This document shows positions 15,835-42,318 of a DNA stretch of 64,000 nucleotides, one piece after another. Made by a program: the position numbers and the translations under genes. Each line of letters starts with the position of its first letter. Positions within the stretch are counted from its first letter, which is position 1. The notes beneath the pieces are model-generated. The model saw nothing but the letters and a program-made list of their open reading frames with translations, did no database searches and was not told the DNA's origin. This stretch comes from an uncultured Planctomycetia bacterium (GTDB lineage: Bacteria > Omnitrophota > Gorgyraeia > CAYWPX01), in assembly GCA_964460615.1 (NCBI GenBank), contig CAYWPX010000006.1:37830-101829 (forward strand), read 5' to 3'.

Positions 15835-15840
15835 GGTATT

Positions 15841-17750: not shown

Positions 17751-17837
17751 TTTTATTTTACTCCTTTGAAATCAGTTTTTTAAAATTTTTATTTTTGTTT
17801 CTTACTCATAACTATAAACTAATAACTCCTAACTTAC

Positions 17838-19052: not shown

Positions 19053-19089
19053 TTTTTGCCTGTTTGTTTATGGTTTTTGGCTGACAGCT

Positions 19090-19130
19090 TCGCCTGTTAA
19101 CGGACAGGCAGATCTGATAGCTGATAGCTA
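19090..19130. repeat. Intergenic repeat family A, degenerate copy 4
   Basis: cgcctgttaacggacaggcag...tgatagctgatagcta (G-for-C variant of the CATAGCT unit). Between the gspE stop and gspF start. Confidence 0.5.
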
Positions 19131-19133
19131 TAT

Positions 19134-22238: not shown

Positions 22239-22478
22239 TTATTTCGTTGTCTTTTCTTCGATATACTTAATAGCCTCACCAACGGTCTTTAGCTTTTCGG
22301 CATCTTCATCCGGAATTTCCATGCCAAACTCTTCTTCTAAAGCCATTACAAGCTCTACCGTATCAAGAGAATCTGCACCTAAATCATCTACAAAAGAAGC
22401 TGAATCTGTTACTTCTTCCTTCTTTACCCCTAACTGCTCAGCTATGATTGACTTAATTTTGTCTGCTGATATCGCCAT
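22239..22478 (-). CDS. acpP: Acyl carrier protein
   Basis: 79 aa with [17 protein letters not shown] (phosphopantetheine Ser). Confidence 0.92.
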
Positions 22479-24757: not shown

Positions 24758-25182
24758 TATTTCCTCTTATTCTTGAATAATTTTTTTCCGGGTTTTTCCG
24801 GCAGATCAGAAATCAGGCAAACTTTTTTGACAGTTTCCAGTAAATCCTCTAAAAGTAAAGGTTTAGTTATATAACTTTCTGCACCTCGCGTCATAGCCTC
24901 ATTTATCTTTTCCTGGTCGTCAATACTAGTCACAATGACAACCTTGGTACCAGGATTTATAGTTTTTATATAAGGAAGAGCATCTAAGCCGCTCATCCCC
25001 GGAAGCTTGATATCCATCAAAAGAACATCCGGTTTTTCCTTTTCCACCATAGGAAGCGCATCGAGGCTATTATGCGCATAAACAACCTCAAAATTTCTTT
25101 CTTCAAAAAAGCTTTTTACAAAACCACAAACATCCTTTTCAACATCCACAATCATTAGTTTTGGATTTTTTTTGTCTTTCAT
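24757..25182 (-). CDS. Single-domain response regulator receiver (CheY-like)
   Basis: 141 aa. Phosphoacceptor region DVLLMDIKLPGMSGLDAL and conserved Lys (ITKP). Confidence 0.75.
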   Translation of the reverse strand: MKDKKNPKLMIVDVEKDVCGFVKSFFEERNFEVVYAHNSLDALPMVEKEKPDVLLMDIKLPGMSGLDALPYIKTINPGTKVVIVTSIDDQEKINEAMTRGAESYITKPLLLEDLLETVKKVCLISDLPEKPGKKLFKNKRK

Positions 25183-25313
25183 TATTGAGTCAGGGTTTGA
25201 TATTACATAAGCTTTTCGGGAAACTCTTTATCATATATATAATTCCAATTTATTAATTACTCACCCCTAAAAGCATCATAAAAACATCCAACCCCTCAGT
25301 CATCACCTCTTTT

Positions 25314-25748
25314 CTATAATGATTTATTTTCCCTCGCCGCAAAACTGATCTGGCCTTTTGCCACAATATCGTCCCCAACTTTGGCCTCAACTTCCGCAAA
25401 ACCGGCGTTTTTTATGAATTTCAAAATCTTAGACTCAATGCGAAGCTGGTCACCTGGCATAACCGGCTTTTTAAATTTTACATCTATGCCTGCAAAAAAA
25501 TATAACAAATTTTTCATATTTTCATCATGCATCATAACTATAGACGCCTGAGCCATTGCTTCTGTTATAAGAACACCCGGCATAATCGGTTCTCCCGGAA
25601 AATGGCCGACAAAATACGGTTCATTGACCGTAACATTCTTTATAGCGACAACTCTTTTTTTAGGTTCAAGCTCGACTATCCGATCAATCATTAAAAAGGG
25701 GTATCTTTGAGGGATCATCTTTTGAATCTCTTTAACATCAAGCTCCAT
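25314..25748 (-). CDS. fabZ: 3-hydroxyacyl-ACP dehydratase
   Basis: IPQRYPFLMIDRIVELEPKKRVVAIKNVTVNEPYFVGHFPGEPIMPGVLITEAMAQ matches the FabZ hotdog consensus, including the catalytic His. Confidence 0.9.
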   Translation of the reverse strand: MELDVKEIQKMIPQRYPFLMIDRIVELEPKKRVVAIKNVTVNEPYFVGHFPGEPIMPGVLITEAMAQASIVMMHDENMKNLLYFFAGIDVKFKKPVMPGDQLRIESKILKFIKNAGFAEVEAKVGDDIVAKGQISFAARENKSL

Positions 25749-25766: not shown

Positions 25767-25994
25767 CTAAATATTGGACATTTTCCTGCGATCTCGACCA
25801 GCAATATTATATTCTTCTTTTTCTTTTATCCATCTTTCTATCGAATCGGTATAAAATCTCCAGTCATCCCCTATCTTAAAAGCAGGGATCTTACCTTCCC
25901 TGGTATATTTATAAACCGTTTGAGGGTGGACACTTAAATACTCTGACACCTCGACTACATTCATAACAGCTTTTTTTGCTTTGTCATGCTGCAT
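25767..25994 (-). CDS. Small HTH DNA-binding protein (excisionase/MerR-superfamily HTH_17-like); start placed at the internal Met with a strong RBS
   Basis: MQHDKAKKAVMNVVEVSEYLSVHPQTVYKYTREGKIPAFKIGDDWRFYTDSIERWIKEKE. AGGAAGG lies ~8 nt upstream of the ATG at 25994, which puts the tandem 13-mers in the promoter region rather than in coding sequence. The ORF-track start at 26081 is unlikely. Confidence 0.6.
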   Translation of the reverse strand: MQHDKAKKAVMNVVEVSEYLSVHPQTVYKYTREGKIPAFKIGDDWRFYTDSIERWIKEKEEYNIAGRDRRKMSNI

Positions 25995-26015: not shown

Positions 26016-26041
26016 ATTGTATCTGATAATTGTATCTGATA
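26016..26041. promoter_or_regulatory. Perfect tandem 13-bp direct repeat (ATTGTATCTGATA)x2 22-47 nt upstream of the HTH gene start
   Basis: Read directly from the sequence. It lies upstream of the RBS-supported ATG at 25994. Confidence 0.6.
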
Positions 26042-26153
26042 CCTGTTGAGTTCTATTAATTCTTAGTAAACAATAGCGCAATAACTAAATATATACTAAT
26101 TTCTGCTAATTGTCAAGATATTGAAAAATATTACTTGTTAAGAAATATAAATT

Positions 26154-28178
26154 TTATCGTAGGTTTAACCCTTTCTCAAAGTAATCGCGGGCTATCTTAT
26201 TCCCGGGATCCAGAAAAAGAACCCTGTCCCATTCCCTTGAGGCATCACGCCTTTTTCCGACAATATAATAAGATACGCCTAAATTGATTCTGGCATCTAT
26301 AAAATCTGGTTTAATGGACAGGGCCTTCATAAAGCAAGCCTGGGCGTTTTGCTGATCATTAATGGAGCCGTAGGCAACCCCTAAATTTAAGTAGAAATCA
26401 GGATTATCATCCTTTATCCCTATGGCCTTTAGATACATTTTAATTGCCGGTTCCGGCTTGGATGTCCTGATATATATATTACCCAGATTATTATAAATCC
26501 CTGCAACGTTTTGATTAAATAGAACGGCTTTCAAATAATTTGTTTCAGATTCATTTAAATCCCCCATATCAAAATACAAATTCCCCAGATTATTATAAGC
26601 CTCAAAATAATAAGGATTTTTCTCTATAGCAACCTTGTAACTATTGACTGCCAAGTCAGTGTCTTTAATCTTCTCATAAAGAAGGCCGAGATTATAATAG
26701 CCTTTTGAATAATCAGGATTAATTACAATACACTTTTTTAGCTGAATAAAAGCATCGTCAATCCTGTCCATTTTTGAATACAGACTAGCCAGATTAAAAT
26801 AAGTAAGATAGCTCTTCGGGTCATTCAACAAGGCCCTCTTATACATACTCTCTGCTAAAATATAATCTTTCCTGGATGTATAAATATTCGCAAGGTTATT
26901 CAGTATAGATATACTATTAGGATTATATTCAAGAGTTTTTATATAAAACGTCTCTTTGTCCCGCCAATCATCATTTCTTACGACGGTTCTGGCAGTAATT
27001 AATATAATGAAAATGACTACCAGGCTGAATATAATTCTTCTTTTTAGCTTAGATTTATCAGCAAATTTTACTACCAAAGAACTTAGAGCAATTAAAAAAC
27101 CCATAATGGCTATGTACATCCAATGCTCTGACATATTTGCTTTTAGAGGTAGTACCCCTGAGACCGGGATTAAACTAACTAAAAACCAGAGAAGGCCGAA
27201 TGAAATGACTTTGAAATGATTAAATAGCCTGAATATTAAAAATATCAAGAATAAGACAACTAAAAAGGAAAAGATTATCCCCGTTTCAAAAAATGTAGTG
27301 GCGAATGGGATAGACCGCTCCATAAAAAGTTTTATCGGAAAGAAAAAGAGGTCTATATACCCGGTTATTGCTTTTAGGCCGGTTAATAGCCCAAGGTAAA
27401 AATTGTAACCATGGCCTATAAATTCTTCCTTTCTAAAATTGAGCGCAGATGTCCTTAGTATAAGATAGACTGCTGAGATCACTAAAAATGGATAAACAAA
27501 TTTAAACCCCACCATTTTCTCGGACCGGCTGATCTCATCCTTTGTTTTAAAAAACCAAGCATAAACAAAAATGATTATGGGAAAAATAACCGCCGACTCT
27601 TTGGAAAATAGCGCTAATAAAAAGGAGATAGCTGATGCTCCTAAATATAAAATCGCCTTCCTTTTTTCTTTCACAAAGTGACTGTCAAAAAAAAGTATCG
27701 AGAGTAACAAAAATATTCCCATAATGGAATCCGCTCTTCCCGATATATATGTAACAGACTCAATATTCAATGGATGAACTATAAAAATCGCTGACGCGAC
27801 AAAAGCAACTCTATTGTCTTTTGTAAGTCTTTTTACAAAAAAATATAGTAGGATTGTCACAAAAAGATGAAAAACCAGATTTGACAGATGATAACCAAAG
27901 GGTTCAAGTTTCCATAAAGAATAATCCAGATTATAGGATATCATTTGCATTGGCCTGTAATAATTTGAAGCACTATTATAAAGATCCGTAACAAAATATT
28001 GCCACCAATTGCTCCAGCTCTGCACTGAATAATTATTTACTATCAAAAAATCATCGTCCCAGAGAAATTGATTGCTGAATGTATTAAAATATGCAGCCAG
28101 CCCCAGAAGTACTAATAACAATATGTTACGTAGATCAAGGGGCTTGTTCTCATATTTATTTTTTAGTCTTTTTTTCAT
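26154..28178 (-). CDS. TMTC-like GT-C membrane glycosyltransferase with C-terminal TPR repeats (DUF1736/PMT_2 plus TPR)
   Basis: Around 10 N-terminal TM helices with an FLWDDD acidic motif in the first extracytoplasmic loop. The C-terminal ~300 aa are TPR repeats (NLANIY..., NLGLLYEK..., YNNLGNLY..., NLGVAYGS...). Confidence 0.6.
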   Translation of the reverse strand: MKKRLKNKYENKPLDLRNILLLVLLGLAAYFNTFSNQFLWDDDFLIVNNYSVQSWSNWWQYFVTDLYNSASNYYRPMQMISYNLDYSLWKLEPFGYHLSNLVFHLFVTILLYFFVKRLTKDNRVAFVASAIFIVHPLNIESVTYISGRADSIMGIFLLLSILFFDSHFVKEKRKAILYLGASAISFLLALFSKESAVIFPIIIFVYAWFFKTKDEISRSEKMVGFKFVYPFLVISAVYLILRTSALNFRKEEFIGHGYNFYLGLLTGLKAITGYIDLFFFPIKLFMERSIPFATTFFETGIIFSFLVVLFLIFLIFRLFNHFKVISFGLLWFLVSLIPVSGVLPLKANMSEHWMYIAIMGFLIALSSLVVKFADKSKLKRRIIFSLVVIFIILITARTVVRNDDWRDKETFYIKTLEYNPNSISILNNLANIYTSRKDYILAESMYKRALLNDPKSYLTYFNLASLYSKMDRIDDAFIQLKKCIVINPDYSKGYYNLGLLYEKIKDTDLAVNSYKVAIEKNPYYFEAYNNLGNLYFDMGDLNESETNYLKAVLFNQNVAGIYNNLGNIYIRTSKPEPAIKMYLKAIGIKDDNPDFYLNLGVAYGSINDQQNAQACFMKALSIKPDFIDARINLGVSYYIVGKRRDASREWDRVLFLDPGNKIARDYFEKGLNLR

Positions 28179-28193
28179 ACCTTCCCTCTTCGT

Positions 28194-29564
28194 CTAATCC
28201 AAACCGAAAAAACCCAAGACTTTAAGCGGCAGCCTGAACCATTTATCCTTAAAAAACCGATAGACCTTATGAAGATCCCCCTTAAGCACTATCTCTATAA
28301 AGACTTTTCTCCACGACTCAAACTCTATTTTTTTAAGCTCTCTTTTGGATAACTTAGAGAAATTGGTATTATCAAGGTTTGATTTTAGTATATCAGGAGT
28401 ATAATCGGCCCATTCAATAGTAGTAGAAGGCGCGGTAATAATCTTTTTTTCCGTAAGATCCTTAAAATAAAAACTCCCCGGATAAGGAGTAAATATACAA
28501 AATGTTATCCAGCTTGGCTTAAGCGATTTGGCAAATTCCACCGTCTTGAGCGATTCTTCGGCTGTCTCATTGGGGAGGCCGAGGATAACCGAAGCGGTTG
28601 TAAGAATATTTTTATAATTGTCGATAAGTTCGAATGCTTTTTTTATTGTCTCTATCTCAACCATCTTATTCATCTTCTTTAAAAGCGCCTCCGAACCCGA
28701 CTCGACGCCTATGAATATCCAAACCTTTTTAAATTTTTTTAATGAATCAAGAAGCTCTTTATCAATATGTTCGGGCCTTGCCTCAATATAAAGCGAATGA
28801 TCGCTTGTAAGCCCTTCCATTATCTTAATAACTCTTTTTTTATCAACGGTAAAATTATCATCGTGGAATTTGAGGTGTTTATTTTTTGTGATCTTTTCCA
28901 CCCTTTTGATCTCTTCCAGCACCCTTCCTGCGCTCTGCGCTCGCCACCTTCTCTTATTGAATTCCTGATTATAGCAAAAATTGCAGTTATACGGACATCC
29001 TCTGGAACTTACTAACACAACCTCAAGGTCTAAATATTTTTTTGCATTTATAAGATCCCAGTTTATAAGAGGAAGGGAATCCAGGTTATCGATAAAAGCC
29101 CTCTCCGGGGTTCTGATTATTTTGCCGTCGTCTTTTAAGCAAAGGCCGGGGATGTTTTTTAGATCTTTCTTATCCCTAAGCGCATCCAGCAGATCCGCAA
29201 ATGTCTCCTCGCCTTCGCCTATTACAATTATATCCACAAAATCATTTGAAACAGTCTCGTCAGGCAGAAGGCTTGGATGTATCCCTCCCCAAACAATCTT
29301 TGTCCTGTCGCCCAGTTCTTTTTTTATAAATCTTGATATCGAGATCGCATCTTTAATAAGAGGGCCTGTAAAAACAGATATTCCTACTACATCCGGTTTA
29401 AATTCTTTTATTAATCTTTTAGTAAAAAAATCGACATTCCTATCAACAATCTTCACTTCGTGACCGCGGAGCCTGGCAGCTTCGGCTACGAAAAGAAGCG
29501 CTAATGGCGGCGTAAGGATACCTCTTGAGGTTATAGAATTGGGTTGAATAAGAAGTGCCTTCAT
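28194..29564 (-). CDS. B12-binding-domain radical SAM protein
   Basis: N-terminal cobalamin-binding Rossmann-like domain (PPLALLFVAEAARLRGHEVKIVD...IVWGGIH). Radical SAM cluster motif SSRGCPYNCNFCYN (CxxxCxxC). Confidence 0.8.
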   Translation of the reverse strand: MKALLIQPNSITSRGILTPPLALLFVAEAARLRGHEVKIVDRNVDFFTKRLIKEFKPDVVGISVFTGPLIKDAISISRFIKKELGDRTKIVWGGIHPSLLPDETVSNDFVDIIVIGEGEETFADLLDALRDKKDLKNIPGLCLKDDGKIIRTPERAFIDNLDSLPLINWDLINAKKYLDLEVVLVSSRGCPYNCNFCYNQEFNKRRWRAQSAGRVLEEIKRVEKITKNKHLKFHDDNFTVDKKRVIKIMEGLTSDHSLYIEARPEHIDKELLDSLKKFKKVWIFIGVESGSEALLKKMNKMVEIETIKKAFELIDNYKNILTTASVILGLPNETAEESLKTVEFAKSLKPSWITFCIFTPYPGSFYFKDLTEKKIITAPSTTIEWADYTPDILKSNLDNTNFSKLSKRELKKIEFESWRKVFIEIVLKGDLHKVYRFFKDKWFRLPLKVLGFFGLD

Positions 29565-29565
29565 A

Positions 29566-30321
29566 TTATTTTTTTATCCCTCTGGCTATTATATTGGATG
29601 AGCTTTTTAATCTTCCGGTCTGGCCGCAAAGAAGCTCAAAGGTGAGATTATTTTTTTCAAAGATTTCTTTAAGTTCATTTGGCGTGTAAAAATGTTTTAC
29701 CGGAACAAAGAACCAATCCTCAACCTGGCTATCAATAGTTATATTATCCTGTCTGACATTCGTCCTTTTACCAAGAAACTCCAGGACTCTTACTATAAGC
29801 GCTACGGATCTAATAAAACACTTCCTGAATATCTTAGACTTAATGGATATGCAGATCTTTCTAATGGTCTCATGTATTAATGATAGCCTTGTCCTAAGAT
29901 ATACCGCCACTATCAAATAACCATCCTTTTTTAAGACCCTGGTTAATTCTTTAAATACCTTCTCAGGATCAACCGAGTGGTGTATAACACCCCATGATAA
30001 AATCAGGTCAAAAGAAGAGTCCTTAACGGGTACTTCGAGTAGACTGGCATTAATCAAATCGATATTTTTTAATAAAAGACCCTTTTTTAGGCTATCCTCC
30101 GTCTTTAAACATTCTAAGCTAAGGTCTATTGATACAACCCGTTCGGCACTACTCGCAAGCGCCAAAGAACACACTCCCGTCCCAGAACCTGCGTCAAGCG
30201 CAATACCTATTCTACCGCCTGGTAAAAGAGTATCTATATGTTCTTTAGTTTTCCGGTAATCAGGGATATTCTTGGGCCAATACTGATCGTAAAAATTTTG
30301 CGTGTCTTTTTCTTTTGTCAT
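29566..30321 (-). CDS. Class I SAM-dependent methyltransferase
   Basis: Motif I GIALDAGSGTGVCSLALA, with an acidic residue after beta2 (VVSIDLS). Confidence 0.7.
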   Translation of the reverse strand: MTKEKDTQNFYDQYWPKNIPDYRKTKEHIDTLLPGGRIGIALDAGSGTGVCSLALASSAERVVSIDLSLECLKTEDSLKKGLLLKNIDLINASLLEVPVKDSSFDLILSWGVIHHSVDPEKVFKELTRVLKKDGYLIVAVYLRTRLSLIHETIRKICISIKSKIFRKCFIRSVALIVRVLEFLGKRTNVRQDNITIDSQVEDWFFVPVKHFYTPNELKEIFEKNNLTFELLCGQTGRLKSSSNIIARGIKK

Positions 30322-31022
30322 AGTTTCCTTACGACTGCAATGTAATTCAATGGGTAGAGTTTTCTCATTCCGAATACCTTATCGGCATAAAAAATAATAA
30401 CTGATAATGCCGCTGATAATAAATAAATAACTTTTCCCAAGAACGGTATTTTTGAAAAAAGAGAATTCATTAAAATAAAAAAGGGGGTCATGGTAAAACA
30501 TATTATTCCGCCGCTTTGGCAATACTCTATTATCTCCAGCTTACCTTCGCACAAGTTTTTGAAACCATATATTGTAAATCTCTGATAATCCTCCGGCTCT
30601 CCGTGAATATACGATAAATGAGGAAAAGAAATAATAGCCTTACCGTCTTTTTTTAATACCCTTGAAATTTCACAAATAATAGATCGGGGGTCTTTGGTAT
30701 GCTCCAGGACTTGTATCGATATCGCCCTATCAACCTTTTCATTTCCAATTGGCAATAATCCGCCATCGCCTACTATACTTAGCTTAGAGGAATTTATGGC
30801 TATATCCAAAGAGAAATACTCTTTTGAGAATTTTTCAATTACAAATTTCCAAAAAAGCCTTCCGGCTCCCACATCTACGACGGTTGCGCCATCGATATGC
30901 TTTTTTAAGACCGGCAATAGATCGGCATAAATACAATAGTGACTAGGCGATAAGAAAAAATATCCTACTTTACCGGCGTAACTATCTTCGGTATCTTTCC
31001 ACATCTTTTTTAAGTTAATCAT
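30318..31022 (-). CDS. Class I SAM-dependent methyltransferase
   Basis: Motif I ATVVDVGAGRLFW, FSLDI, and a KDGKAIISFPH post-II region. 4-nt overlaps with both neighbours. Confidence 0.65.
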   Translation of the reverse strand: MINLKKMWKDTEDSYAGKVGYFFLSPSHYCIYADLLPVLKKHIDGATVVDVGAGRLFWKFVIEKFSKEYFSLDIAINSSKLSIVGDGGLLPIGNEKVDRAISIQVLEHTKDPRSIICEISRVLKKDGKAIISFPHLSYIHGEPEDYQRFTIYGFKNLCEGKLEIIEYCQSGGIICFTMTPFFILMNSLFSKIPFLGKVIYLLSAALSVIIFYADKVFGMRKLYPLNYIAVVRKL

Positions 31023-32976
31023 TTTTTATGCTCAGATTTATTCCTGCTTTTTGGAGATCGTCTCCCCTGAATATCCAGGCCTGCGTAAAACCTCTAAAGG
31101 CTATAGTAAAAACCGGCTTAACATCATAAGGAAAATCAACTCCATTTTGGGTCACAGAAGATCTGTTAATAACATAATAATCCCTCTCGGAATATGTGGA
31201 GTTTTTATCAATGGGTTGTATATTCAACGCTTTAGAGCCTACCCACTCACCTTTATAACTATAATACAAATTTATTTTCCCGCAATCAATTTTATTAGCT
31301 TTGCAAATTTTCTCAATTTTTTTTCCAGCGAGCATAACCTCCTCACCCCACCCCTGCCAGGGGCCATTTATCCTTCCGGGTTCAGGATTATTAGAATACG
31401 TTCTGGGATAGCTGGACCATATCGGCCTGAATGGAGCAAAAAGCGGCCCAAAAGGAAGTACCTCTAAGAACAGTACTATTAAAATAAGCGAAACGGCTAT
31501 TCCTTTTTTTCTTCTCTCCAGCTCTCCGAAAACAAAATCCAAGACAATAAGACAAAACAAGGCAAATAAAAGTACAGGAATATTAAAATACCTGTTTACG
31601 ACCGGAGTTTCGGTAATCCCAAAAATAACCGGGCATAACATAACAAAGAAAAACATCACATCCCAACCGGCAAAATATTTCTTCCCGGAATTTTTGTTCT
31701 TGACCACCGTTACAACAAATAAAGCCAACACGATCCAGAAAACTGTCGGAATAGCATTAACAAAAACCGATACGGCAAGTCCGATGTAAGATAATATATG
31801 CTGAAGCTTGCTAGCTGCATCAAAATGCCAGGTAACGCCATTCATAGAGAATGGCGGAATATAAAGACCTGATTTTATCGGATGAAAAGGAGCCCAGTAA
31901 GCATTTATAATAAAAGTAGATGAAATCCCCAGTAGTAATAAAGGAAGCCATAAAAATAAATTAATCATTTTAATTTTTAGTATAAACTTTTGGATCAGGC
32001 TTGCCGACTTGAAAAATAAAATCATTGAAACAAAAATTACTACAAAATATGCTACGAAAAAAAATAATGGATTCAATATTGCCAGTTCGTTTACCCCTCC
32101 GAATAATACAATAAACAAACGGATCAAAGGCCAAACCCAGGCAAATATCGGAAAGCAAACCGATGAAAAACTGAAGTCCGGGAACCCATCCTCCTTTGAA
32201 AACCATACAACAAAAAATGTCGCTGCCAGGATAAATAAACCCAATCCCAATGAAGCTAAAGAAGCCTTAAATAAAGATATCCACTTGTCTTTTTTATCTT
32301 TGTTAGCTGAAAAAAGATAGCATAAATTCACCGATGCCATCAGAAAAAACGGCGAGGATATAAGCTTTTCCTGTGAGGCAAATACTGAGATCAGAACCGC
32401 TAAAATAGCATTCTTAAGGCTGTTATTCTTTAAAGATATGAATATATACACAACAGTCAATATGGACAGCAGCATCGAAAAAAGATCATAAGTAAAGACC
32501 TTAAAAGCTATCATGTTGGTAGGAAGCAAGAAGATAAAGTACATGAACAACATAGAAAAGTAAACTTTATTTTTCTCCTGGATAAAATTCTTTAGCAAAA
32601 GATTATATATAACCATTACCAATAAAAACCCAAAAAACCAGTGCATTGATTTTGCTAATATTACTAATAAACTTAATGACGGCTTAATAAAACTTTGAAG
32701 AATTACAAATGGAACCCCTATAAATAAATCGGTAGTTCTTAAGGCATAAAAATCCCATTGCGTCAATGGTAACTTTTTAAGAAAAATAATTTCAGGAAGC
32801 GTAAAATATTCATCTATAGTAAGAAATTGTGTAACAGACTCCAATGACAAATAAATTGGCATCATAGATATGAGCGTTAAAAAAGTAGCCTTCTTATTCG
32901 ATCCAAGGCCAGATCTAAAAATAAAAAAAAGAATTATTAAGGAAACAATAAACACGGCTAATTCAAAAAAATTCAT
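31015..32976 (-). CDS. Large polytopic membrane protein (~14 TM helices plus a ~200-aa C-terminal soluble domain); possible GT-C glycosyltransferase or polymerase
   Basis: Hydrophobicity pattern only. No catalytic motif recognised. It sits inside the glycosyltransferase cluster and overlaps its neighbours by a few nt. Confidence 0.35.
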   Translation of the reverse strand: MNFFELAVFIVSLIILFFIFRSGLGSNKKATFLTLISMMPIYLSLESVTQFLTIDEYFTLPEIIFLKKLPLTQWDFYALRTTDLFIGVPFVILQSFIKPSLSLLVILAKSMHWFFGFLLVMVIYNLLLKNFIQEKNKVYFSMLFMYFIFLLPTNMIAFKVFTYDLFSMLLSILTVVYIFISLKNNSLKNAILAVLISVFASQEKLISSPFFLMASVNLCYLFSANKDKKDKWISLFKASLASLGLGLFILAATFFVVWFSKEDGFPDFSFSSVCFPIFAWVWPLIRLFIVLFGGVNELAILNPLFFFVAYFVVIFVSMILFFKSASLIQKFILKIKMINLFLWLPLLLLGISSTFIINAYWAPFHPIKSGLYIPPFSMNGVTWHFDAASKLQHILSYIGLAVSVFVNAIPTVFWIVLALFVVTVVKNKNSGKKYFAGWDVMFFFVMLCPVIFGITETPVVNRYFNIPVLLFALFCLIVLDFVFGELERRKKGIAVSLILIVLFLEVLPFGPLFAPFRPIWSSYPRTYSNNPEPGRINGPWQGWGEEVMLAGKKIEKICKANKIDCGKINLYYSYKGEWVGSKALNIQPIDKNSTYSERDYYVINRSSVTQNGVDFPYDVKPVFTIAFRGFTQAWIFRGDDLQKAGINLSIKND

Positions 32977-34112
32977 AGTCTCTCACCTTTGACCAGCCTG
33001 CACAAAGAGTCGGCTATTGTTCTCCAGTTATGTTTTTTGACCTTATCTAGATTATTCTTCCCTAATTTAAGCCTCAAGGCTTCATCCGTTACTAGTTCAT
33101 TAATAGCCCTACTTAAGGATCTTACATCATTTACATCGATCAGATACCCATTGACGCCGCTCTCTACAAGCTCTCTATGCGCGGTAATATTACTGACTAC
33201 AACCGGCAATCCGGAAGCCATAGCTTCTAAAAGTGAATTAGACATCCCTTCGTCCAGGGAAACCGAAACAAAGATATCGGATCTATTATAAATTTGAGGA
33301 ATTTTATCTCTCTCAACCCAGCCGGAAAATAAAACGATATCACTGATACCAAGCTCGGAACACCTATTGACCAAACTCTTTTTTTCCGGACCTTCGCCTA
33401 TTATTTCAAGAGTAAAACAGTTAGCAGTATCTTTTTTTGCCAATGATACAGCCAGAAGAAGATTATCTAAGTTTTTCTGTTTACTCAACCTTCCTATATA
33501 GATTAATTTCACAATTCCTTCTTTTTTACGCTCCGACACCGGCTGAAATAGTCCATCAACTCCGTTCGGGATAACATATATAGGCCTTTTGTCCAAAGTC
33601 TTTAAAGCAAGCTCTTTAAGGCTATGGCTATTTGCAACAATATATTCGGCATTAACCCAGATATATTTGATCAAGGGCTTTAAGAGCTTATTTAGAACGC
33701 TGAATTTTCCTCCATAAAAACCAGGGACATCTATACCCCTTAAAAAAACTATGTAAGGTATATTATGAATCTTTTTGATAAAAAGCGCCGTTAAGCCGGA
33801 GGGAATAGTAAAAAATGCGAATACTTTATCAAAACTCGTTTTATTGATATTCTTAATTGAAAAAAATATCGAGTTTAACGTAAAAAACAGATAATCCTGG
33901 ATGCTACCTGTATGGACATCCCTTCTAAAACTTTTAATCCTCAAGATCTTACAATTATTCAACAGATTTTCTTTCGGAAGACCCTTATAGGATCCCGTCA
34001 GGACCGTTACATCATTACCAAACCCCGCAAGATGCTTTGATATCTCGGCTGAGGCCGTCGCCCCGCCTCCTCCAACAGGAGGAAATTCATGGTTTATTAT
34101 TAGTATTTTCAT
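32973..34112 (-). CDS. Glycosyltransferase family 4 (GT-B fold)
   Basis: MKILIINHEFPPVGGGGATASAEI start and the EX7E-type motif EGMSNSLLEAMASGLPVVVSNI. Confidence 0.8.
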   Translation of the reverse strand: MKILIINHEFPPVGGGGATASAEISKHLAGFGNDVTVLTGSYKGLPKENLLNNCKILRIKSFRRDVHTGSIQDYLFFTLNSIFFSIKNINKTSFDKVFAFFTIPSGLTALFIKKIHNIPYIVFLRGIDVPGFYGGKFSVLNKLLKPLIKYIWVNAEYIVANSHSLKELALKTLDKRPIYVIPNGVDGLFQPVSERKKEGIVKLIYIGRLSKQKNLDNLLLAVSLAKKDTANCFTLEIIGEGPEKKSLVNRCSELGISDIVLFSGWVERDKIPQIYNRSDIFVSVSLDEGMSNSLLEAMASGLPVVVSNITAHRELVESGVNGYLIDVNDVRSLSRAINELVTDEALRLKLGKNNLDKVKKHNWRTIADSLCRLVKGERL

Positions 34113-36016
34113 TATGTTTTTTTAAGCCAATTATCGTGCCAAAGTTCAAAAATAAAAAGCGTCCACAATTTTTTTCTGTTGTCTTTTGTCAAATCGTGAT
34201 GTTCTTCCAACAGATTCTGGATATACTCTGAATCAAAATTCCCCTCTCGTTTTATCTTATCGGTTGACAGCGTATCCATAAATAAATCTTTAAGATCGGA
34301 GTTGATCCATTTCCCTATAGGTATCCCAAACCCCTTCTTTGAGCGGCTTATTATCTTATGCGGCAAATCATTTTTTAGAGATCTTTTGAGGATATATTTA
34401 GATTCAAAATTGTGAAGTTTGCTATATGGGTCAAGCGAAAGAGCGAATTCTACGAATTTATAATCCAAAAACGGAGCTCTTACCTCCAGAGAGTTCGCCA
34501 TACTTGCTCTGTCAACTTTAGTAAGAATATCATCAGCAAGATAGAATTTACAATATAAATATGTCAGAAGGTCTATATAGTTTTTGGCATTACAGTCTTT
34601 TAGCGAATCTTCAATATCCCTGAATAATTCCCCGTTCTTTAGATCGGGCTCAAGTATCAGGCTTTTCTGCTCAACCGGCAAAAATGAACCTAGCCATGCC
34701 TGGTTTCTTGCTGGCAGATCGAACTCTATCCCTCTTAAAAATTGTTTAAGTTTGAAATCAAGGCTCATGTTATTAAGTGACACCGGGAGCTTGAGGAAAG
34801 CCTGATAAAAAAACCCTCTTAGAAACGCCGGCAGTTTCTTATAGATATTGGCTATCTTATGCGCCTGGAATGTTTCGTAACCGGCAAAAAGCTCATCCCC
34901 TCCGTCTCCCCCAAGGGCAACCGTCACATACTCTTTTGTGAACTTGGACAAAAGATATGTCGGTATTATTGATGCATCTGCCAAAGGCTCATCCAGAAAA
35001 TTTGCAATTTCCGGTATGATCCTTAACATAGCCTTAGGGTCTAATATTTTCTCATGATGGTCAGTATGAAACATTTCGGCCAGTTGCCGGGCATAAAGTG
35101 CTTCATCAAAACTCTTATCTTCAAAACCTATCGTAAAAGTCTTTATATCTTTTGAGGGCTTCAATTCCGACATAAGATAAGTGATCGCGCTTGAATCTAT
35201 CCCGCCGCTTAAAAAGACACCCAAAGGCACATCGCTTATAAGACGGTTTTTTACGGAGGATTTTAGATCACTTTTAAGCTGAGAAGAAGTATCGGCATAT
35301 TTTTTTTTATTAAAATCAAGGCTCCAGTATCTTTTTTGTATTATAGCCTTATCTTCATTAAAGAGAATAAAATTACCGGCATCAAGGCGTTTTATGTTCT
35401 CATAAATCGTGCTCGGCGATGGAACATATTCATAAAGAAGATATTTTTGCAAAGAGAGCCTATCTAGTCTTCTATTAAATTTGGGATATTTAAGAATAGC
35501 TTTTGGTTCTGAGGCAAAAACAAAATTACCTCCGAACTGTGTATAATATAAAGGTTTTTTTCCCATACGGTCCCTAGCCAGAAAAAGAGACCTTTTCTTG
35601 TTATCCCAAATAGCAAAAGCAAACATCCCGTTAAATCTCTGAAGGCACTCTTCGCCCCATTCTTCATAACCGTGGATTATTACTTCTGTATCACACTTAG
35701 AAATAAATTTATGGCCTTTTTGTGCCAATACTTGACGGAGTTCAAGAAAATTGTAGATCTCACCGTTATATGTAACCCAGATAGACCCATCTTCATTTGT
35801 CATCGGCTGATGAGCGAATTTGGAAAGATCTATTATACTCAGACGGTTGTGGCCAAAAACAACTTTTAGCGGATCTTCTTTATCAAAGCCCTCAAAATAC
35901 GTCCCATAATCATCCGGCCCCCTGTGTTTAATAGACAAACACATTTCGAGGATGACCTTTTCGGCTTCTTTTCTCCCCAAAGAATCATTTGTGATGAAAC
36001 CGGCTATTCCGCACAT
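34112..36016 (-). CDS. asnB: Asparagine synthase (glutamine-hydrolysing) family amidotransferase
   Basis: N-terminal nucleophile MCGIAGF (Cys2). Ntn glutaminase domain plus synthetase domain (SGGIDSS PP-loop). 634 aa. Often a WbpS-like amidotransferase when found in glycan clusters. Confidence 0.85.
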   Translation of the reverse strand: MCGIAGFITNDSLGRKEAEKVILEMCLSIKHRGPDDYGTYFEGFDKEDPLKVVFGHNRLSIIDLSKFAHQPMTNEDGSIWVTYNGEIYNFLELRQVLAQKGHKFISKCDTEVIIHGYEEWGEECLQRFNGMFAFAIWDNKKRSLFLARDRMGKKPLYYTQFGGNFVFASEPKAILKYPKFNRRLDRLSLQKYLLYEYVPSPSTIYENIKRLDAGNFILFNEDKAIIQKRYWSLDFNKKKYADTSSQLKSDLKSSVKNRLISDVPLGVFLSGGIDSSAITYLMSELKPSKDIKTFTIGFEDKSFDEALYARQLAEMFHTDHHEKILDPKAMLRIIPEIANFLDEPLADASIIPTYLLSKFTKEYVTVALGGDGGDELFAGYETFQAHKIANIYKKLPAFLRGFFYQAFLKLPVSLNNMSLDFKLKQFLRGIEFDLPARNQAWLGSFLPVEQKSLILEPDLKNGELFRDIEDSLKDCNAKNYIDLLTYLYCKFYLADDILTKVDRASMANSLEVRAPFLDYKFVEFALSLDPYSKLHNFESKYILKRSLKNDLPHKIISRSKKGFGIPIGKWINSDLKDLFMDTLSTDKIKREGNFDSEYIQNLLEEHHDLTKDNRKKLWTLFIFELWHDNWLKKT

Positions 36017-36017
36017 A

Positions 36018-36971
36018 TCAGAGATTTATCTTTTCTTTTATAAAATAGGAAGGTTTTTTTAACGACTCAAAATAAGTCCTAATCTGCATCTCTGCCAGGA
36101 GGCCCATCAGTATAAACTGCACTCCAACCATTAGTAATACCGCAGATATAATTAACAACGGGCTCTGGATCATCGATATACCTTTGATAACCTTATTATA
36201 GATAAGCATTGCGGTAGACATAAAGCTAAGTAAAAAAGAGATCAGTCCTATTCCCCCAAAAATATATATCGGTTTTGAACCATAGCTTGCCAAAAATTTT
36301 ATTGTAATCAGGTCTAGGATAACCTTTAAGGTTCTCCATATATTATATTTTGATTTACCGTGTATCCTCGGCCTGTGGTTAACCGGAATTTCTGCAATTC
36401 TTGCTCCTACCCATGAGGCATAAATCGGAATAAATCTATGCATCTCTCCATAAAGCTTGATATCTTTTAATACCGAGGCCCTATAGGCTTTAAGGGTGCA
36501 CCCATAGTCATTCAAATGAACACCTCCGATAATAGATATTAATTTATTTGCTAGTATCGAGGGCAGCCTTCTATTAAAAAAAGCATCCTTCCTATCTTTC
36601 CTCCATCCGCTCACCACATCAAAACCCTCATTAATCTTTAAGAGCAATTTCGGAATATCGTTAGGATCGTTCTGAAGATCCCCATCCATAAATAATACTA
36701 TTTCTCCCTCGGCAAAATCGATCCCGCAAACCAAAGCAGCGGTCTGGCCAAAGTTTCTGGAAAAAGATATTACCTTTACAGACCCGTCATTCGAAGAAAT
36801 ATGCTTGAGCATATCCAGGCTCTTATCCAAACTGCCGTCATTTACAAAAATTATTTCATAAGTCAGTTTTTCTCTCTCTATGACCTGCTTAATCTCTTTA
36901 TAAAGTTCATCTATATTGCTCTCTTCATTGAATATGGGAATTATTATTGATATATTTGGTTTATTTTTCAT
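36018..36971 (-). CDS. GT2 polyprenyl-phosphate glycosyltransferase (DPM1/ArnC/GtrB-like) with two C-terminal TM helices
   Basis: ISIIIPIFNEESNI...FVNDGSLDKS...FMDGDLQNDP (DXD) in a GT-A fold. Two C-terminal TM helices, as in GtrB/ArnC. Confidence 0.8.
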   Translation of the reverse strand: MKNKPNISIIIPIFNEESNIDELYKEIKQVIEREKLTYEIIFVNDGSLDKSLDMLKHISSNDGSVKVISFSRNFGQTAALVCGIDFAEGEIVLFMDGDLQNDPNDIPKLLLKINEGFDVVSGWRKDRKDAFFNRRLPSILANKLISIIGGVHLNDYGCTLKAYRASVLKDIKLYGEMHRFIPIYASWVGARIAEIPVNHRPRIHGKSKYNIWRTLKVILDLITIKFLASYGSKPIYIFGGIGLISFLLSFMSTAMLIYNKVIKGISMIQSPLLIISAVLLMVGVQFILMGLLAEMQIRTYFESLKKPSYFIKEKINL

Positions 36972-37698
36972 CTTTTTCTCCGTTCTTGATCTTGGCTAGG
37001 ACAAGTATAAGATCTCCCTTAAAATTTAAATTGAGAAAAAAAACTAAATACAAAAAAATTGCCGCAGCTTTTTTTAAAAAACCGAATTTTCCTTCACTCG
37101 TATTCTGCGGAAGCGCCTGGCACAAATCCCTGTATAAAGGCGAGTAAAAAGGAAATCCCCATTTTTTTGCCTTAACAATATAAAAACCTGCGCTCTTTAT
37201 CTTAGTTAACAGCTCATCAAAAGAATAATTCCTTACGTGCCCCATGATTTTTTCAAAAGGCCGCATCTTCCCCAATAAAGTACATATCAAAAGATATTTA
37301 CCGGACATTTTGGAAAGATTCTTCAAAAAATTGACATCATTATTAATATGCTCTATTACATCGATCGCGGTAATAAGATCGTATTTTTCTTGTAGATATT
37401 CCTTTTCAAAATCGACAATATAAAATTTAGAACCGGGAAAATTTTCCTCTGCATTATTTATGGCAGTTTGAGAAATATCTGCGCCACTTAAAACAATTTT
37501 AGGATTTTTAGAAGCCACAAATCTTAAAAACGAACCTTCGCCGCATCCTATATCAAGCATAGAATTAACATTCAATTTTTTTATAATGCCAAAACACAGC
37601 CGCCTCGTATGGCGTGACATAGGGCCGAATTTTTTCATGTCAAACCATCTTGACCATGAACTATCATAAAACTTTTTATCAAAATTTTCTTTTGCCAT
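36961..37698 (-). CDS. Class I SAM-dependent methyltransferase
   Basis: Motif I SMLDIGCGEGSFL and motif post-I GADIS. Confidence 0.7.
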   Translation of the reverse strand: MAKENFDKKFYDSSWSRWFDMKKFGPMSRHTRRLCFGIIKKLNVNSMLDIGCGEGSFLRFVASKNPKIVLSGADISQTAINNAEENFPGSKFYIVDFEKEYLQEKYDLITAIDVIEHINNDVNFLKNLSKMSGKYLLICTLLGKMRPFEKIMGHVRNYSFDELLTKIKSAGFYIVKAKKWGFPFYSPLYRDLCQALPQNTSEGKFGFLKKAAAIFLYLVFFLNLNFKGDLILVLAKIKNGEKDEK

Positions 37699-37706
37699 AA
37701 TTCCCT

Positions 37707-39050
37707 CTAATTAAATACATCGAAAGTTGCTGTATTGCTGAAAACCGCCCCGAGGCCCAAATTTATTGACCACGCTGATACTAAAAATAGAAGCAGCACC
37801 GTTATTAGATTGCCCAGGTTGCCTCCGCCTTTATAATTGTTCAGATATACTCTTATTTTCTCCAAGGAGAGTGCGGATATTATAGCGATCGATGGATAGA
37901 CCGGAAGCATGTATCTCTCCTCTTTGGCAGGAATAATTACCAGGAAAATTATATGAACAAAAAACCAAGTCAAACATATTATCCTTTCCGGAGTAAAAAT
38001 TTTTCTAAATATTATTTTTACTGATTCAACATAAAAAAACAGGAATAACGGCGAAAGATACACAAAATAATAGAATTGGCCGTAACGAGGCCTTTTACTC
38101 AAAAGAATGAACCAGCTTGAGACCTTCTCAATGCCGGGCTGATAAGGCATATACCACGGTGACCCATAAATAGCTGTAATCTTGTAATACCAGAAAAAAC
38201 ATACAAAGAAAGCGCTTAAAATAAAAAACATAAGCCTTTTGTCAAAGATATTTTTAAAACTTAAGCCACCCATCCCTTTTTCTTTTAAATTAATAAGTAA
38301 AAATGATAGGGCTAATATGATGATTATAAAAACCCCTGACTGTTTCGTCAAGCCGGCCAGCCCCCCCATAATACCGCTCAATACAAAATAATAAATTTTA
38401 TCCTTTTTAAAACCAAGCCAAAAAAAGATTACGCATAATATCGTAAAAAACGACACCATTTCATCCGTCCAAAGCCTTTGCGAAGTCAGAATATCAACCG
38501 GGCTTGTAGCAACCAGTATCGACGCCCACAATCCGACATTTTCACTAAAAAAAAGTTTCCCGAGAATAAAAACTAAAAGTATAAACAATATGCTGAATAA
38601 AAAATTGGGCCAAACAGCATAGAATTGAGCTTTTAAAAAAAAATCCGGCCTTATAAAAATAGCAAACGGCCCAAGATTACTGTTTACGGATAAATACGGG
38701 GCATGGCTTGCAAATAATTTATGCGAAAGCATCATTAGGAAACTAAATGCCGGAGGCATATTAGATAGAATTTCTTTTGAATAATAAAATACATTATCTT
38801 TTTCAAAGCTTTCAAGGAGAACCCCCTTGCCCTCCATAGGACTAAACTCCAGGAGGTGATTTACTTTTTTTACATCGATACCATTGAGGTTGTAGCCTTT
38901 CAGGCCAAACTTATCCAATTTCATAGCAAGGCCCAAAAATGAAACCTGATCACCGTGGTTATGAGGAAGGTAAAAGGTGTGCATACGAAGGCTTATAGAA
39001 AAAATAACTATAAGCAAAACTATTACAAGGCTATTAATTTTATTTTTCAT
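37707..39050 (-). CDS. GT-C family membrane glycosyltransferase (ArnT/PMT_2-like)
   Basis: 447 aa, ~11 TM helices, short N-terminal loop with HNHGDQ after TM1. Encoded next to the GT2 polyprenyl-P sugar synthase, a pairing typical of ArnC/ArnT-like systems. The family assignment rests on topology only. Confidence 0.5.
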   Translation of the reverse strand: MKNKINSLVIVLLIVIFSISLRMHTFYLPHNHGDQVSFLGLAMKLDKFGLKGYNLNGIDVKKVNHLLEFSPMEGKGVLLESFEKDNVFYYSKEILSNMPPAFSFLMMLSHKLFASHAPYLSVNSNLGPFAIFIRPDFFLKAQFYAVWPNFLFSILFILLVFILGKLFFSENVGLWASILVATSPVDILTSQRLWTDEMVSFFTILCVIFFWLGFKKDKIYYFVLSGIMGGLAGLTKQSGVFIIIILALSFLLINLKEKGMGGLSFKNIFDKRLMFFILSAFFVCFFWYYKITAIYGSPWYMPYQPGIEKVSSWFILLSKRPRYGQFYYFVYLSPLFLFFYVESVKIIFRKIFTPERIICLTWFFVHIIFLVIIPAKEERYMLPVYPSIAIISALSLEKIRVYLNNYKGGGNLGNLITVLLLFLVSAWSINLGLGAVFSNTATFDVFN

Positions 39051-39068: not shown

Positions 39069-39100
39069 CAAAAAAATATAGCGCATAAATTGCGCTATAT
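39069..39100 (-). terminator. Rho-independent terminator downstream of fabD
   Basis: Perfect 10-bp inverted repeat ATATAGCGCA-taaat-TGCGCTATAT (39076..39100). On the minus strand it is followed by a run of seven T (39069..39075), 34 nt past the fabD stop. Confidence 0.7.
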
Positions 39101-39133: not shown

Positions 39134-40057
39134 TTATAATTTAAGGTCATCGGCAGTTTCAATATTATTGACCAGCAAAGACGGATCAATCCTTCTTATA
39201 AGCCCCTTCAGGACTTTTCCCGGCCCTATCTCAAGAAAACTCGTTACGCCGTTCCTAGACGCAAGCCTTACCGAATCTTCAAATCTTGTGGTACTGGCTA
39301 CCTGCAGATAAAGATTCTTTTTTATTTCGTTCGGGTTATCCTCATAATCGCTTGTTACATTGGCAATAACGGGAATCTGGGGCATCCTAATCTCTATCTT
39401 TTCAAGTTCATCTTTAAGCTTTAGAGAGGCACTTTTCATATAGTTAGAATGAAACGGCCCGCTGCAATCAAGCTGTATTACTTTCTTTGCGCCTTTAGCC
39501 TTAGCCAGTTCCTGAAACTTTTCGCTATTCTCAAGCCCCGCTGAAACAACTACCTGTCCGGGACAGTTAAGATTTGCTATGTAACTGGAAGTTTCGTTGC
39601 AAACAGCCTCAACAGCTTCCTTTTCCAATCCTATAACCGAGAACATTTTTCCGGGATTTTCAAGAGAGGCCTCTTCCATATACTCACCGCGTTTTCTAAC
39701 CAGTTTTACGGCATCTTTAAATTCCATTGCCCCGCATGCTACTAAAGCAGAATACTCGCCCAAGCTCAACCCAAATGTTAAAACGCATTCAAACCTTTTT
39801 GGTTCCAAACTATTTATCACCGCCAAAGCCGCCATGCTCGTAGTGAGTATTGCCGCTTGGGAATTTCTGGTTGAAGACAACTCATCAGCCGGGCCCTCAA
39901 AACAAAGTTTTTTGATATCAAAATTCAACAAATAGGATGCGCTATCAAAAATATCCTTCGCCTCGGAAAAATTTTCATAAAGCGACTTACCCATTCCGAC
40001 GTACTGAGACCCCTGTCCCGGAAATATAAACGCACATTTTTGTTTATTTATCGTCAT
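39134..40057 (-). CDS. fabD: Malonyl-CoA:ACP transacylase
   Basis: CAFIFPGQGSQYVGMGKSLYE with the GLSLGEYSA active-site Ser motif. Confidence 0.92.
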   Translation of the reverse strand: MTINKQKCAFIFPGQGSQYVGMGKSLYENFSEAKDIFDSASYLLNFDIKKLCFEGPADELSSTRNSQAAILTTSMAALAVINSLEPKRFECVLTFGLSLGEYSALVACGAMEFKDAVKLVRKRGEYMEEASLENPGKMFSVIGLEKEAVEAVCNETSSYIANLNCPGQVVVSAGLENSEKFQELAKAKGAKKVIQLDCSGPFHSNYMKSASLKLKDELEKIEIRMPQIPVIANVTSDYEDNPNEIKKNLYLQVASTTRFEDSVRLASRNGVTSFLEIGPGKVLKGLIRRIDPSLLVNNIETADDLKL

Positions 40058-42127: not shown

Positions 42128-42318
42128 TTTTCTGTTCCTTTTTCAGCTTTAATCACTACCGGTTTCCCTTTATAAAAACCACAATGAGGGCAGATCCTGT
42201 GTGGCATTTTTTCTTTCTGACATTGAGGGCAGATGGATGCATTGCCAGCTTTTAGGGCATCGTGTGTACGACGCTTTCTTGTCATTGTATTCGAATGTCT
42301 ACGCTTCGGATTTGGCAT
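42124..42318 (-). CDS. rpmF: 50S ribosomal protein L32
   Basis: 64 aa, MPNPKRRHSNTMTRKRRTHDALK... with a CxxC...CxxC zinc ribbon. Canonical rpmF-plsX-fabH-fabD synteny. Confidence 0.85.
   Translation of the reverse strand: MPNPKRRHSNTMTRKRRTHDALKAGNASICPQCQKEKMPHRICPHCGFYKGKPVVIKAEKGTEK

Follow-up and report, generated by a model that had tools for sequence, protein, structure and literature searches.

The window analysed here, a 64,000-nucleotide (nt) stretch of an Omnitrophota contig, carries a block of ten open reading frames (ORFs) between fabD and fabZ of its fatty-acid synthesis (fab) gene cluster. Omnitrophota are uncultured, often ultra-small and possibly host-dependent bacteria whose surface chemistry is unknown. 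According to the ORF list and the translations, the ten ORFs lie at 26154..39050 on the minus strand, all in the same orientation and tightly packed. They meet in five overlaps (11, 1, 4, 8 and 4 nt) and four gaps (8, 1, 1 and 15 nt), and there is no room between them for additional genes. A previous sequence-only reading had described same-strand genes that mostly overlap, and this layout was confirmed. It had also called two GT-C, one GT2 and one GT4 glycosyltransferase, an AsnB-type amidotransferase, a B12-radical S-adenosylmethionine (SAM) enzyme, three methyltransferases and an orphan of 653 amino acids (aa); these calls were upheld by Pfam and NCBIfam. From the fabD side, the ORFs are as follows.

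37707..39050, minus strand: GT-C glycosyltransferase, PMT_2/ArnT-like, 447 aa (Pfam)
36961..37698, minus strand: class I SAM methyltransferase MT1, 245 aa (Pfam)
36018..36971, minus strand: GT2 glycosyltransferase, ArnC/GtrB type, 317 aa (Pfam and structure-sequence match)
34112..36016, minus strand: AsnB-type glutamine amidotransferase, 634 aa (Pfam, NCBIfam)
32973..34112, minus strand: GT4 glycosyltransferase (GT-B fold), cytoplasmic, 379 aa (Pfam)
31015..32976, minus strand: unk653, polytopic orphan, 653 aa (no family match)
30318..31022, minus strand: class I SAM methyltransferase MT2, 234 aa (Pfam)
29566..30321, minus strand: class I SAM methyltransferase MT3, soluble, 251 aa (Pfam)
28194..29564, minus strand: B12-binding radical SAM enzyme, 456 aa (Pfam)
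26154..28178, minus strand: TPR-GT-C, with eight C-terminal tetratricopeptide repeats (TPRs), 674 aa (Pfam and AlphaFold)

Domains were called with Pfam at curated gathering thresholds and with NCBIfam at equivalog cut-offs. The GT2 protein (Glycos_transf_2, 120 bits) aligns over residues 6-315 to solved ArnC (186 bits) and to GtrB sll0501 (158 bits). It has a DGD motif and, by hydropathy, two C-terminal hydrophobic helices (residues 234-259 and 261-297). Because the match to ArnC/GtrB is full-length and two terminal hydrophobic helices are present, the protein is predicted to be an ArnC/GtrB-type polyprenyl-phosphate sugar synthase. Its scores lie under the cut-offs for ArnC (NF007986, 214 vs. 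529 bits) and PgfS (NF047588, 190 vs. 500 bits), and it is therefore placed as a family member and not as an orthologue.

Two further proteins are predicted PMT-clan GT-C enzymes. The 447-aa protein matches PMT_2 (PF13231, 43.2 bits, cut-off 26.1) and PMT (PF02366, 30.4 bits, cut-off 22.7), has about nine hydrophobic segments with a first loop of 111 aa by hydropathy, and is 36% identical to the PMT_2 gene product at L100, one of the related loci described below. The 674-aa TPR-GT-C matches PMT (27.5-28.2 bits, cut-off 22.7) and TPR families. In hhalign, with the 447-aa protein and its locus-mates in relatives taken as one group, this group is homologous to the N-terminal domain of TPR-GT-C (probability 96.5%, E 9e-10), and the GDQ at residues 33-35 of the 447-aa protein aligns with the DD motif of TPR-GT-C, the topology coming from hydropathy only. 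An AlphaFold model of TPR-GT-C built with 73 homologues (predicted local distance difference test score, pLDDT, 94; predicted template-modelling score, pTM, 0.91) consists of membrane helices up to residue ~403 and, after them, 16 helices arranged as eight TPRs. This repeat region matches the structures of OGT, SPY and consensus TPRs. Foldseek of the model against the PDB returned TPR proteins only, and the N-terminal domain, used as a profile query against the PDB, gave no match. Near-invariant among the 73 homologues are D41-D42, R75-P76, H135-P136, R148, S192/E194 and E351/Y355. The sequence WDDD at residues 40-43 places a DD in the first extracytoplasmic loop, after the first transmembrane helix as drawn from hydropathy, where GT-C enzymes carry their acidic catalytic motif.

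The sequence-only reading had called TPR-GT-C TMTC-like. This stands for the architecture and for some motifs and does not stand for family membership. As in the eukaryotic protein O-mannosyltransferases TMTC1-4, an N-terminal multi-pass GT-C domain is followed by a TPR array across the membrane. The TMTC motifs M1-M7 are DD, SHKSYRP, RxD, KE(T/Q)xxT, DW, PxxP and ERxxY (PMC7801869). TPR-GT-C has, near-invariant, the DD (in WDDD, residues 40-43), YRP (74-76), an RAD within GRAD that corresponds to RxD, and an SKE that corresponds to KE, whereas no DW or PxxP was detected and EHWMY takes the place of ERxxY; about four of the seven motifs are present. Unlike in the eukaryotic proteins, DUF1736 does not match residues 1-410 even at E<=1, and the donor would be undecaprenyl-linked. 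The protein is thus a PMT-clan member built like a TMTC, yet should not be classed as a member of the TMTC family. At least 661 relatives were found at E<=0.001 among 8000 scored candidates. Most named relatives of the enzyme are from Omnitrophota. In the literature searched, no bacterial enzyme with this architecture has been characterised and no substrate is given, in agreement with the earlier statement that TMTC-type bacterial enzymes have no characterised substrate. Since it is conserved, syntenic and accompanied by defined partner genes, the TPR-GT-C of this locus is a good entry point to a numerous family. At L101 (5066-12241), in an Omnitrophota metagenome-assembled genome (MAG) from NCBI, three tandem TPR-GT-C paralogues lie away from fab genes; a response-regulator gene separates the first from the second. 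The family occurs in multiple copies in Omnitrophota, and P0018 and P0029 are on the same 1.82-Mb contig.

The 653-aa protein, unk653, gave no Pfam, NCBIfam or PDB sequence match, also when its family profile was used. A word-indexed search returned two relatives only. Exhaustive search of a 1.84-billion-protein library returned 269 cluster representatives, mostly 640-690 aa long, and 153 of these matched at E<=1e-30. unk653 is an undescribed family. Its N-terminus is a hydrophobic helix followed by a first loop of ~60 residues with a near-invariant D55; the next residue is E56 in the window protein and in those most closely related to it. K109, H112, P152, Y163-D164 and E203-K204 are also conserved in the family. 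The protein has about a dozen membrane segments, and a conserved soluble C-terminal domain of ~135 residues contains WxGWGEE.

The genomic company of unk653 was counted over 14 distinct loci with GC contents (guanine plus cytosine) from 0.30 to 0.70. An AsnB homologue (32-46% identity) is present at 10 of the 14. At six, there is an ArnC-like GT2 that is 47-55% identical to the window GT2, with the AsnB gene directly after it, which is also the arrangement of the window. At most of the loci unk653 has a class I methyltransferase as its neighbour, and a GT4 is often present; a PMT_2 or LPG_synthase_TM protein occurs at some. MT1 homologues (37-46% identity) adjoin unk653 homologues in L087, L088 and L097, and MT2 homologues (31-36% identity) lie directly beside them in L002/3, L089, L093 and L095 and nearby in L096. 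The unk653-GT2-AsnB-methyltransferase set is a conserved module across several phyla. Judged from its sequence and company, unk653 is probably a periplasm-facing transferase or another handler of lipid-linked sugar that partners GT2, which is the most economical role. It would be the third transferase of the block to depend on a lipid carrier. A GT-C-like nature is reasonably likely. In a non-significant hhalign alignment, its conserved motifs run in the same order as DD, YRP, HP, RxD and KE, and among 69 family members one matches DUF6056 (5e-5) and one PMT_2 (6e-3). A relationship to the DUF2079 proteins of neighbouring cassettes was considered and rejected, as no relationship was found. Two tandem unk653 homologues at L001 (3882-10155), on a 70%-GC contig, reach ~1040-1049 aa through an extra C-terminal domain. 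One of them has a weak Wzt_C-like match (E 0.0045), and an LPG_synthase_TM gene adjoins.

The remaining six proteins are tailoring enzymes and a cytoplasmic glycosyltransferase by domain content. The AsnB-type protein (Asn_synthase, 331 bits; GATase_7, 169 bits) passes TIGR01536 (511 bits, cut-off 267) and carries Cys2 and an SGGIDSS loop in its translation. Its best model is the PEP-CTERM exopolysaccharide (EPS) amidotransferase TIGR03108, whose cut-off it misses (572 vs. 817 bits). GT4 matches Glycos_transf_1 (141 bits) and Glyco_transf_4 (61 bits) and has no transmembrane segment. MT1 matches Methyltransf_12/23/31, MT2 Methyltransf_11 (38.6 bits) and MT3 Methyltransf_11 (74 bits), and a GxGxG motif can be read in the methyltransferase translations. 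MT1 and MT2 have hydrophobic stretches toward their C-termini (residues 206-234 and 171-219, respectively), which suggests that both may act in association with the membrane. Such hydrophobic ends are uncommon among soluble sugar methyltransferases and fit a lipid-linked substrate. The radical SAM enzyme matches B12-binding (74.7 bits, cut-off 32.1) and Radical_SAM (80.3 bits, cut-off 29.5). With its N-terminal B12-binding domain ahead of a radical SAM core, it is of class B (cobalamin-dependent), and its CPYNCNFC sequence supplies the CxxxCxxC motif (C190-x3-C194-x2-C197). Radical SAM paralogues adjoin the TPR-GT-C gene in L084 and L099. A defence function for the block was also considered and found unsupported: defence-system models matched only generically, to the methyltransferases and the radical SAM enzyme.

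Because an ArnC/GtrB-type GT2, two PMT-clan GT-C proteins and enzymes of amidation and methylation occur together, we read the block, with a probability of about 60%, as an extracytoplasmic glycosylation unit of the three-component type that depends on a polyprenyl-phosphate carrier. Homology thus supports the lipid-carrier-dependent periplasmic glycosylation that had been proposed from the sequence. At the cytoplasmic face, GT2 would transfer a sugar from a nucleotide donor to undecaprenyl phosphate. Before or after loading, the sugar would be tailored: the AsnB-type enzyme would convert a carboxylate to a carboxamide, and the three SAM methyltransferases, two of them apparently membrane-anchored, would modify it together with the B12-radical SAM enzyme, adding O-, N- or C-methyl groups or carrying out other radical chemistry. 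GT4 may add a second sugar. A flippase encoded elsewhere would translocate the lipid-linked sugar, and the periplasm-facing 447-aa enzyme, TPR-GT-C and probably unk653 would pass it to acceptors in the envelope. The TPR array of the 674-aa enzyme would favour a protein or polymer as acceptor; the 447-aa enzyme could equally well act like ArnT, on lipid A or core. What we infer in this scheme is which substrates are used, in what order the steps run, which acceptor is modified and what unk653 catalyses.

The general logic of three-component periplasmic glycosylation has been reviewed (PMC11127046, PMC8035078). Like ArnC/ArnE-F/ArnT, GtrB/GtrA/GtrC, CsbB/GtcA/YfhO and the streptococcal PgfS-type systems, the block has a GT2 with two C-terminal transmembrane helices and encodes GT-C fold transferases in the same operon-like unit as this GT2. 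It differs from them in having two or three GT-C-type proteins where those systems have one, in the addition of AsnB, three methyltransferases, a B12-radical SAM enzyme and a GT4, in a GT2 that stays under the equivalog cut-offs for ArnC and PgfS, and in the absence of a flippase gene. The findings extend the three-component theme and do not overturn current concepts; the new part is one undescribed protein family.

Several observations weigh against the glycosylation unit. Among the ten block proteins, Pfam and NCBIfam detected no flippase (GtrA, DUF2304, LPG_synthase_TM, ArnE/F or GtcA), while related cassettes do carry the flippase candidates LPG_synthase_TM or DUF2304. There is no nucleotide-sugar synthesis gene among the ten genes, and the block gives no indication of the acceptor. 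Neither the radical SAM enzyme nor the methyltransferases reach an NCBIfam equivalog threshold, and their substrates could be non-sugar. Spacing is the sole basis for co-transcription, on which we infer that the ten genes form one operon-like unit. As for unk653, its hhalign comparisons with the two GT-C groups are not significant (E 0.006-0.012, probability 3-6%), its AlphaFold model from a three-sequence alignment is poor (pLDDT 45), and Foldseek with this poor model placed STT3 chains at the top and EmbB lower at a non-significant best E of 0.39.

In a different assignment, the block is a conventional O-antigen, capsule or EPS cluster that works on undecaprenyl diphosphate, with unk653 as a Wzy/WaaL-like polymerase or ligase and not a monosaccharide transferase. 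O-antigen clusters typically contain GT4, GT2, AsnB and methyltransferase genes, the best AsnB model is one for EPS (below its cut-off), unk653 homologues lie beside Wzm/Wzt ABC transporters, pyruvyl transferase and epimerases in L002 and L091, and L100 has Wzm/Wzt right after fabF. We nevertheless consider such a cluster unlikely, as Pfam and NCBIfam detect in the block no WecA/WbaP-type phosphoglycosyltransferase, no Wzx, Wzy or Wzz, no ABC exporter and no nucleotide-sugar genes, while the GT2 is over its full length of the ArnC/GtrB monosaccharide-carrier type and the block has two bona fide PMT-clan GT-C enzymes. Uronamide-forming AsnB-like amidotransferases are known from O-antigen clusters, such as WbpS in P. 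aeruginosa and WbtH in Francisella, and by analogy the block enzyme may amidate a carboxyl group. It shares with WbpS/WbtH and with the XrtA/PEP-CTERM enzyme of TIGR03108 the two-domain glutamine-hydrolysing AsnB fold, Cys2, the PP-loop and a setting among glycosyltransferases. It differs from the TIGR03108 enzyme in scoring below the cut-off and in lacking an exosortase context, and from WbpS/WbtH in lying directly after an ArnC-like GT2, an arrangement found also at six or more unrelated loci and, to our knowledge, not described for WbpS or WbtH.

The location of the block, between plsX-fabH-fabD and fabZ-fabG-acpP-fabF, would be explained if the B12-radical SAM enzyme and the methyltransferases tailored membrane lipids. 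The radical SAM enzyme is weakly similar to the hopanoid methylases HpnR and HpnJ and to a lipid-biosynthesis B12-radical SAM model, MT1 is weakly similar to CMAS/cyclopropane synthase, and MT1 and MT2 appear membrane-anchored. All of these similarities fall far under the family cut-offs and amount to generic domain matches. Moreover, the methyltransferases accompany unk653, GT2 and AsnB in contigs without fab genes, and other cassettes have radical SAM and methyltransferase genes by TPR-GT-C together with more glycosyltransferases. Lipid tailoring is thus very improbable, and extracytoplasmic glycosylation on a polyprenyl-phosphate carrier remains our preferred reading.

A bolder form of this reading joins two claims. 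The first is that unk653 founds a new GT-C-like family of lipid-carrier-dependent transferases that deliver an amidated, methylated sugar. The second is that TPR-GT-C is a bacterial protein O-glycosyltransferase akin to the ancestors of eukaryotic TMTCs, whose TPRs select periplasmic or surface proteins. Taken together, the two claims are tentative and rather doubtful. If they were true, the unk653, GT2, AsnB and methyltransferase pathway would be a three-component pathway not yet described. In any case, unk653 and its constant GT2-AsnB-methyltransferase companions are a testable, undescribed sugar-modification module.

The surroundings of the block bear on its origin. The features of the flanks are listed below.

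42124..42318, minus strand: rpmF, followed by plsX, fabH and fabD (39134..40057), upstream flank
39076..39100, minus strand: intrinsic terminator closing rpmF-plsX-fabH-fabD; 10-bp stem with four G-C pairs, 5-nt loop, run of seven T
25767..25994, minus strand: small regulator of the HTH_17 (excisionase/MerR-like) type (HTH_17, 56 bits)
25314..25748, minus strand: FabZ/FabA-like dehydratase, followed by a response regulator and a GAF-HD-GYP protein (all within 23384..25748; Pfam)
downstream of GAF-HD-GYP: fabG, acpP (22239..22478) and fabF

The strong terminator reported earlier after rpmF-plsX-fabH-fabD was found at 39100..39076, in the 83-nt spacer 3' of fabD. The earlier claim of an interrupted fab cluster needs a correction. 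The gap from fabD to fabG is real, and it also holds HTH_17, fabZ, the response regulator and HD-GYP, which are conserved there in relatives. HTH_17 probably starts at the ATG at 25994, after AGGAAGG, which gives 75 aa compared with 64-74 aa in relatives. A promoter-like TTGACA-17-TATATT lies ahead of it at 26116..26088. Between this site and the start codon, a 10-nt direct repeat, ATCAGATACA, occurs in two copies with a 13-nt period (26040..26031 and 26027..26018, minus strand) and could be an operator.

The best genome match of FabD is an Omnitrophota MAG (52% identity). Five loci were taken as those of Omnitrophota relatives by synteny and by FabG identities of 69-83%. In the gene orders below, percentages in brackets after TPR-GT-C are identities to the window protein.

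L084 (closest; FabG 83%, FabZ 76%): DUF2079, GT2, PMT_2, radical SAM, radical SAM, methyltransferase, GT2, GT2, DUF2304, TPR-GT-C (54%), HTH, fabZ, response regulator, HD-GYP
L085 (FabG 71%): pta, plsX, fabH, fabD, three small ORFs, TPR-GT-C (41%), weak PMT_2 (opposite strand), HTH, response regulator, HD-GYP, fabG, acpP, fabF
L086 (FabG 73%): radical SAM, DUF2079, GT9 and GT2 genes, TPR-GT-C (39%), HTH, histidine kinase, response regulator, HD-GYP, fabG, acpP, fabF
L099 (FabG 70%): plsX, fabH, fabD, PMT_2, TPR-GT-C (41%), methyltransferase, B12 radical SAM, methyltransferase, unknown, PMT_2, HTH, HD-GYP, fabG
L100 (FabG 69%): fabH, fabD, GT2 (53% to window GT2), GT4, GT4, radical SAM, pyruvyl transferase, LPG_synthase_TM, PMT_2 (36%), TPR-GT-C (36%), HTH, response regulator, HD-GYP, fabG, acpP, fabF

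TPR-GT-C orthologues (36-54% identity) occupy the same site in all five. The shared order is (fabD)-cassette-TPR-GT-C-HTH_17-(fabZ)-response regulator-HD-GYP-fabG, with fabD visible in three of the five loci; in L099 a PMT_2 gene directly follows fabD. An HTH_17 gene is found in the fabD-fabG gap of every cassette-bearing relative and also of L004, and was not detected in L030. The flank of fabZ, response regulator and HD-GYP is 73-76% identical in L084; response regulator and HD-GYP are also found in L030, L085, L086 and L100, and HD-GYP in L099. The gene sets upstream of TPR-GT-C differ among the relatives around a common theme of PMT_2, GT2, radical SAM and methyltransferase genes. More distant Omnitrophota lack the cassette: L004 (FabG 46%) has HTH_17 alone, and L030 (FabG 58%) has unrelated genes with the response regulator and HD-GYP. 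At most loci from other phyla, the gene directly after fabD belongs to a fabG-(acpP)-fabF series or is fabF, without a cassette.

The sequence-only reading had taken the block for an island inserted into the fab cluster, and had named the same interrupted order in related genomes as the finding that would speak against it. This order is what L084, L085, L086, L099 and L100 have. A recent island would be a ~13-kb unit acquired horizontally that split an intact fab operon of this genome. In its favour, the GC content of the block is 0.362 compared with 0.394 for the other genes (p=0.001), all ten block proteins are singletons at 90% identity in a cluster look-up, the closest relative, L084, holds a different cassette, L004 and L030 have none, and the inner GT2-AsnB-GT4-unk653-MT module is found in unrelated phyla. 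The GC deficit lies in codon positions 1 and 2, and therefore reflects amino-acid content, which fits hydrophobic proteins rich in Lys, Asn and Ile. GC at third codon positions is barely shifted (0.365 vs. 0.384, p=0.06), and the codon-usage distance of 0.348 ranks 4th among 41 ten-gene blocks, within a top-twelve range of 0.33-0.37; the proposed comparison of composition thus gave no sign of recent import. There is no tRNA in the window, no integrase or transposase domain among the window proteins and no att-like repeat at the flanks of the block, where the repeat search returned AT-rich chance repeats only. Furthermore, the last block gene has syntenic orthologues in five lineages, PMT_2 and GT2 recur at the locus, and the site is empty in distant Omnitrophota only (L004 and L030, FabG 46-58%). 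For the block as a whole, a recent island is largely refuted and very improbable; any exchange would have involved no more than an inner sub-module, and at a time remote enough for its composition to ameliorate.

Since five relatives share the same interrupted order and the block has no skew in synonymous composition, the interruption of the fab genes, and with it the locus, is ancestral to a clade of Omnitrophota and not an insertion. In this clade TPR-GT-C and HTH/response regulator/HD-GYP stay in place, whereas the tailoring and donor genes upstream of TPR-GT-C, as far as fabD, turn over. It behaves like a variable locus for surface antigens and not like a mobile island. The anchor, TPR-GT-C, diverges faster in L084 than its neighbours do (54% vs. 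73-83% identity), as is typical for surface-related genes. In L084 a GT2 gene (14683-15459) also interrupts the HD-GYP-fabG interval, which in the window is just a 110-nt spacer, and this is a second variable point. Conserved flanks, an anchor gene and a cassette that differs by lineage are shared with known variable surface-polysaccharide loci at fixed sites. The fabD-fabG site differs from these in lying within a fatty-acid synthesis cluster and in its constant element, which here is TPR-GT-C with the HTH/response regulator/HD-GYP regulators. The position inside the fab cluster might, as a guess, have come about through co-regulation of envelope lipid and glycan synthesis. Cell-surface biosynthesis has been listed among the hypervariable loci of Omnitrophota chromosomes, and the fabD-fabG site is not mentioned there (preprint 10.64898/2026.06.07.730766). 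A fixed site with a lineage-differing glycosylation cassette marks where surface diversity of Omnitrophota arises, and it offers a handle for lineage typing.

The rest of the window is made up of housekeeping genes, with recJ, recG, rsmD, coaD, pta and ackA on one side and a secretion/pilus cluster on the other; an Rfam search of the window returned no RNA element. The secretion cluster, of the type II secretion/type IV pilus-like kind, follows fabF directly (8602-20831, minus strand). It encodes a GspE/MshE ATPase, GspF, pseudopilins, a PilM-PilN fusion, PilO, an AAA protein, a T2SS-C-like protein and a secretin, and includes a 207-aa ORF (16841-17464, minus strand) with no Pfam match. The order fabF-GspE-GspF-GspG is also found in L086. 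Cyclic di-GMP signalling is represented by a GAF-GGDEF cyclase at the start of the window (81-839, plus strand) and by the response regulator and GAF-HD-GYP phosphodiesterase (23384-25182, minus strand), the latter pair being kept within the fab cluster of several Omnitrophota lineages. Near the far end of the window, an envelope/isoprenoid cluster, uppS-cdsA-dxr-rseP-ispG-proS, lies at 56571-63140 on the minus strand, and its uppS would be the source of the undecaprenyl carrier that the glycosylation model assumes.

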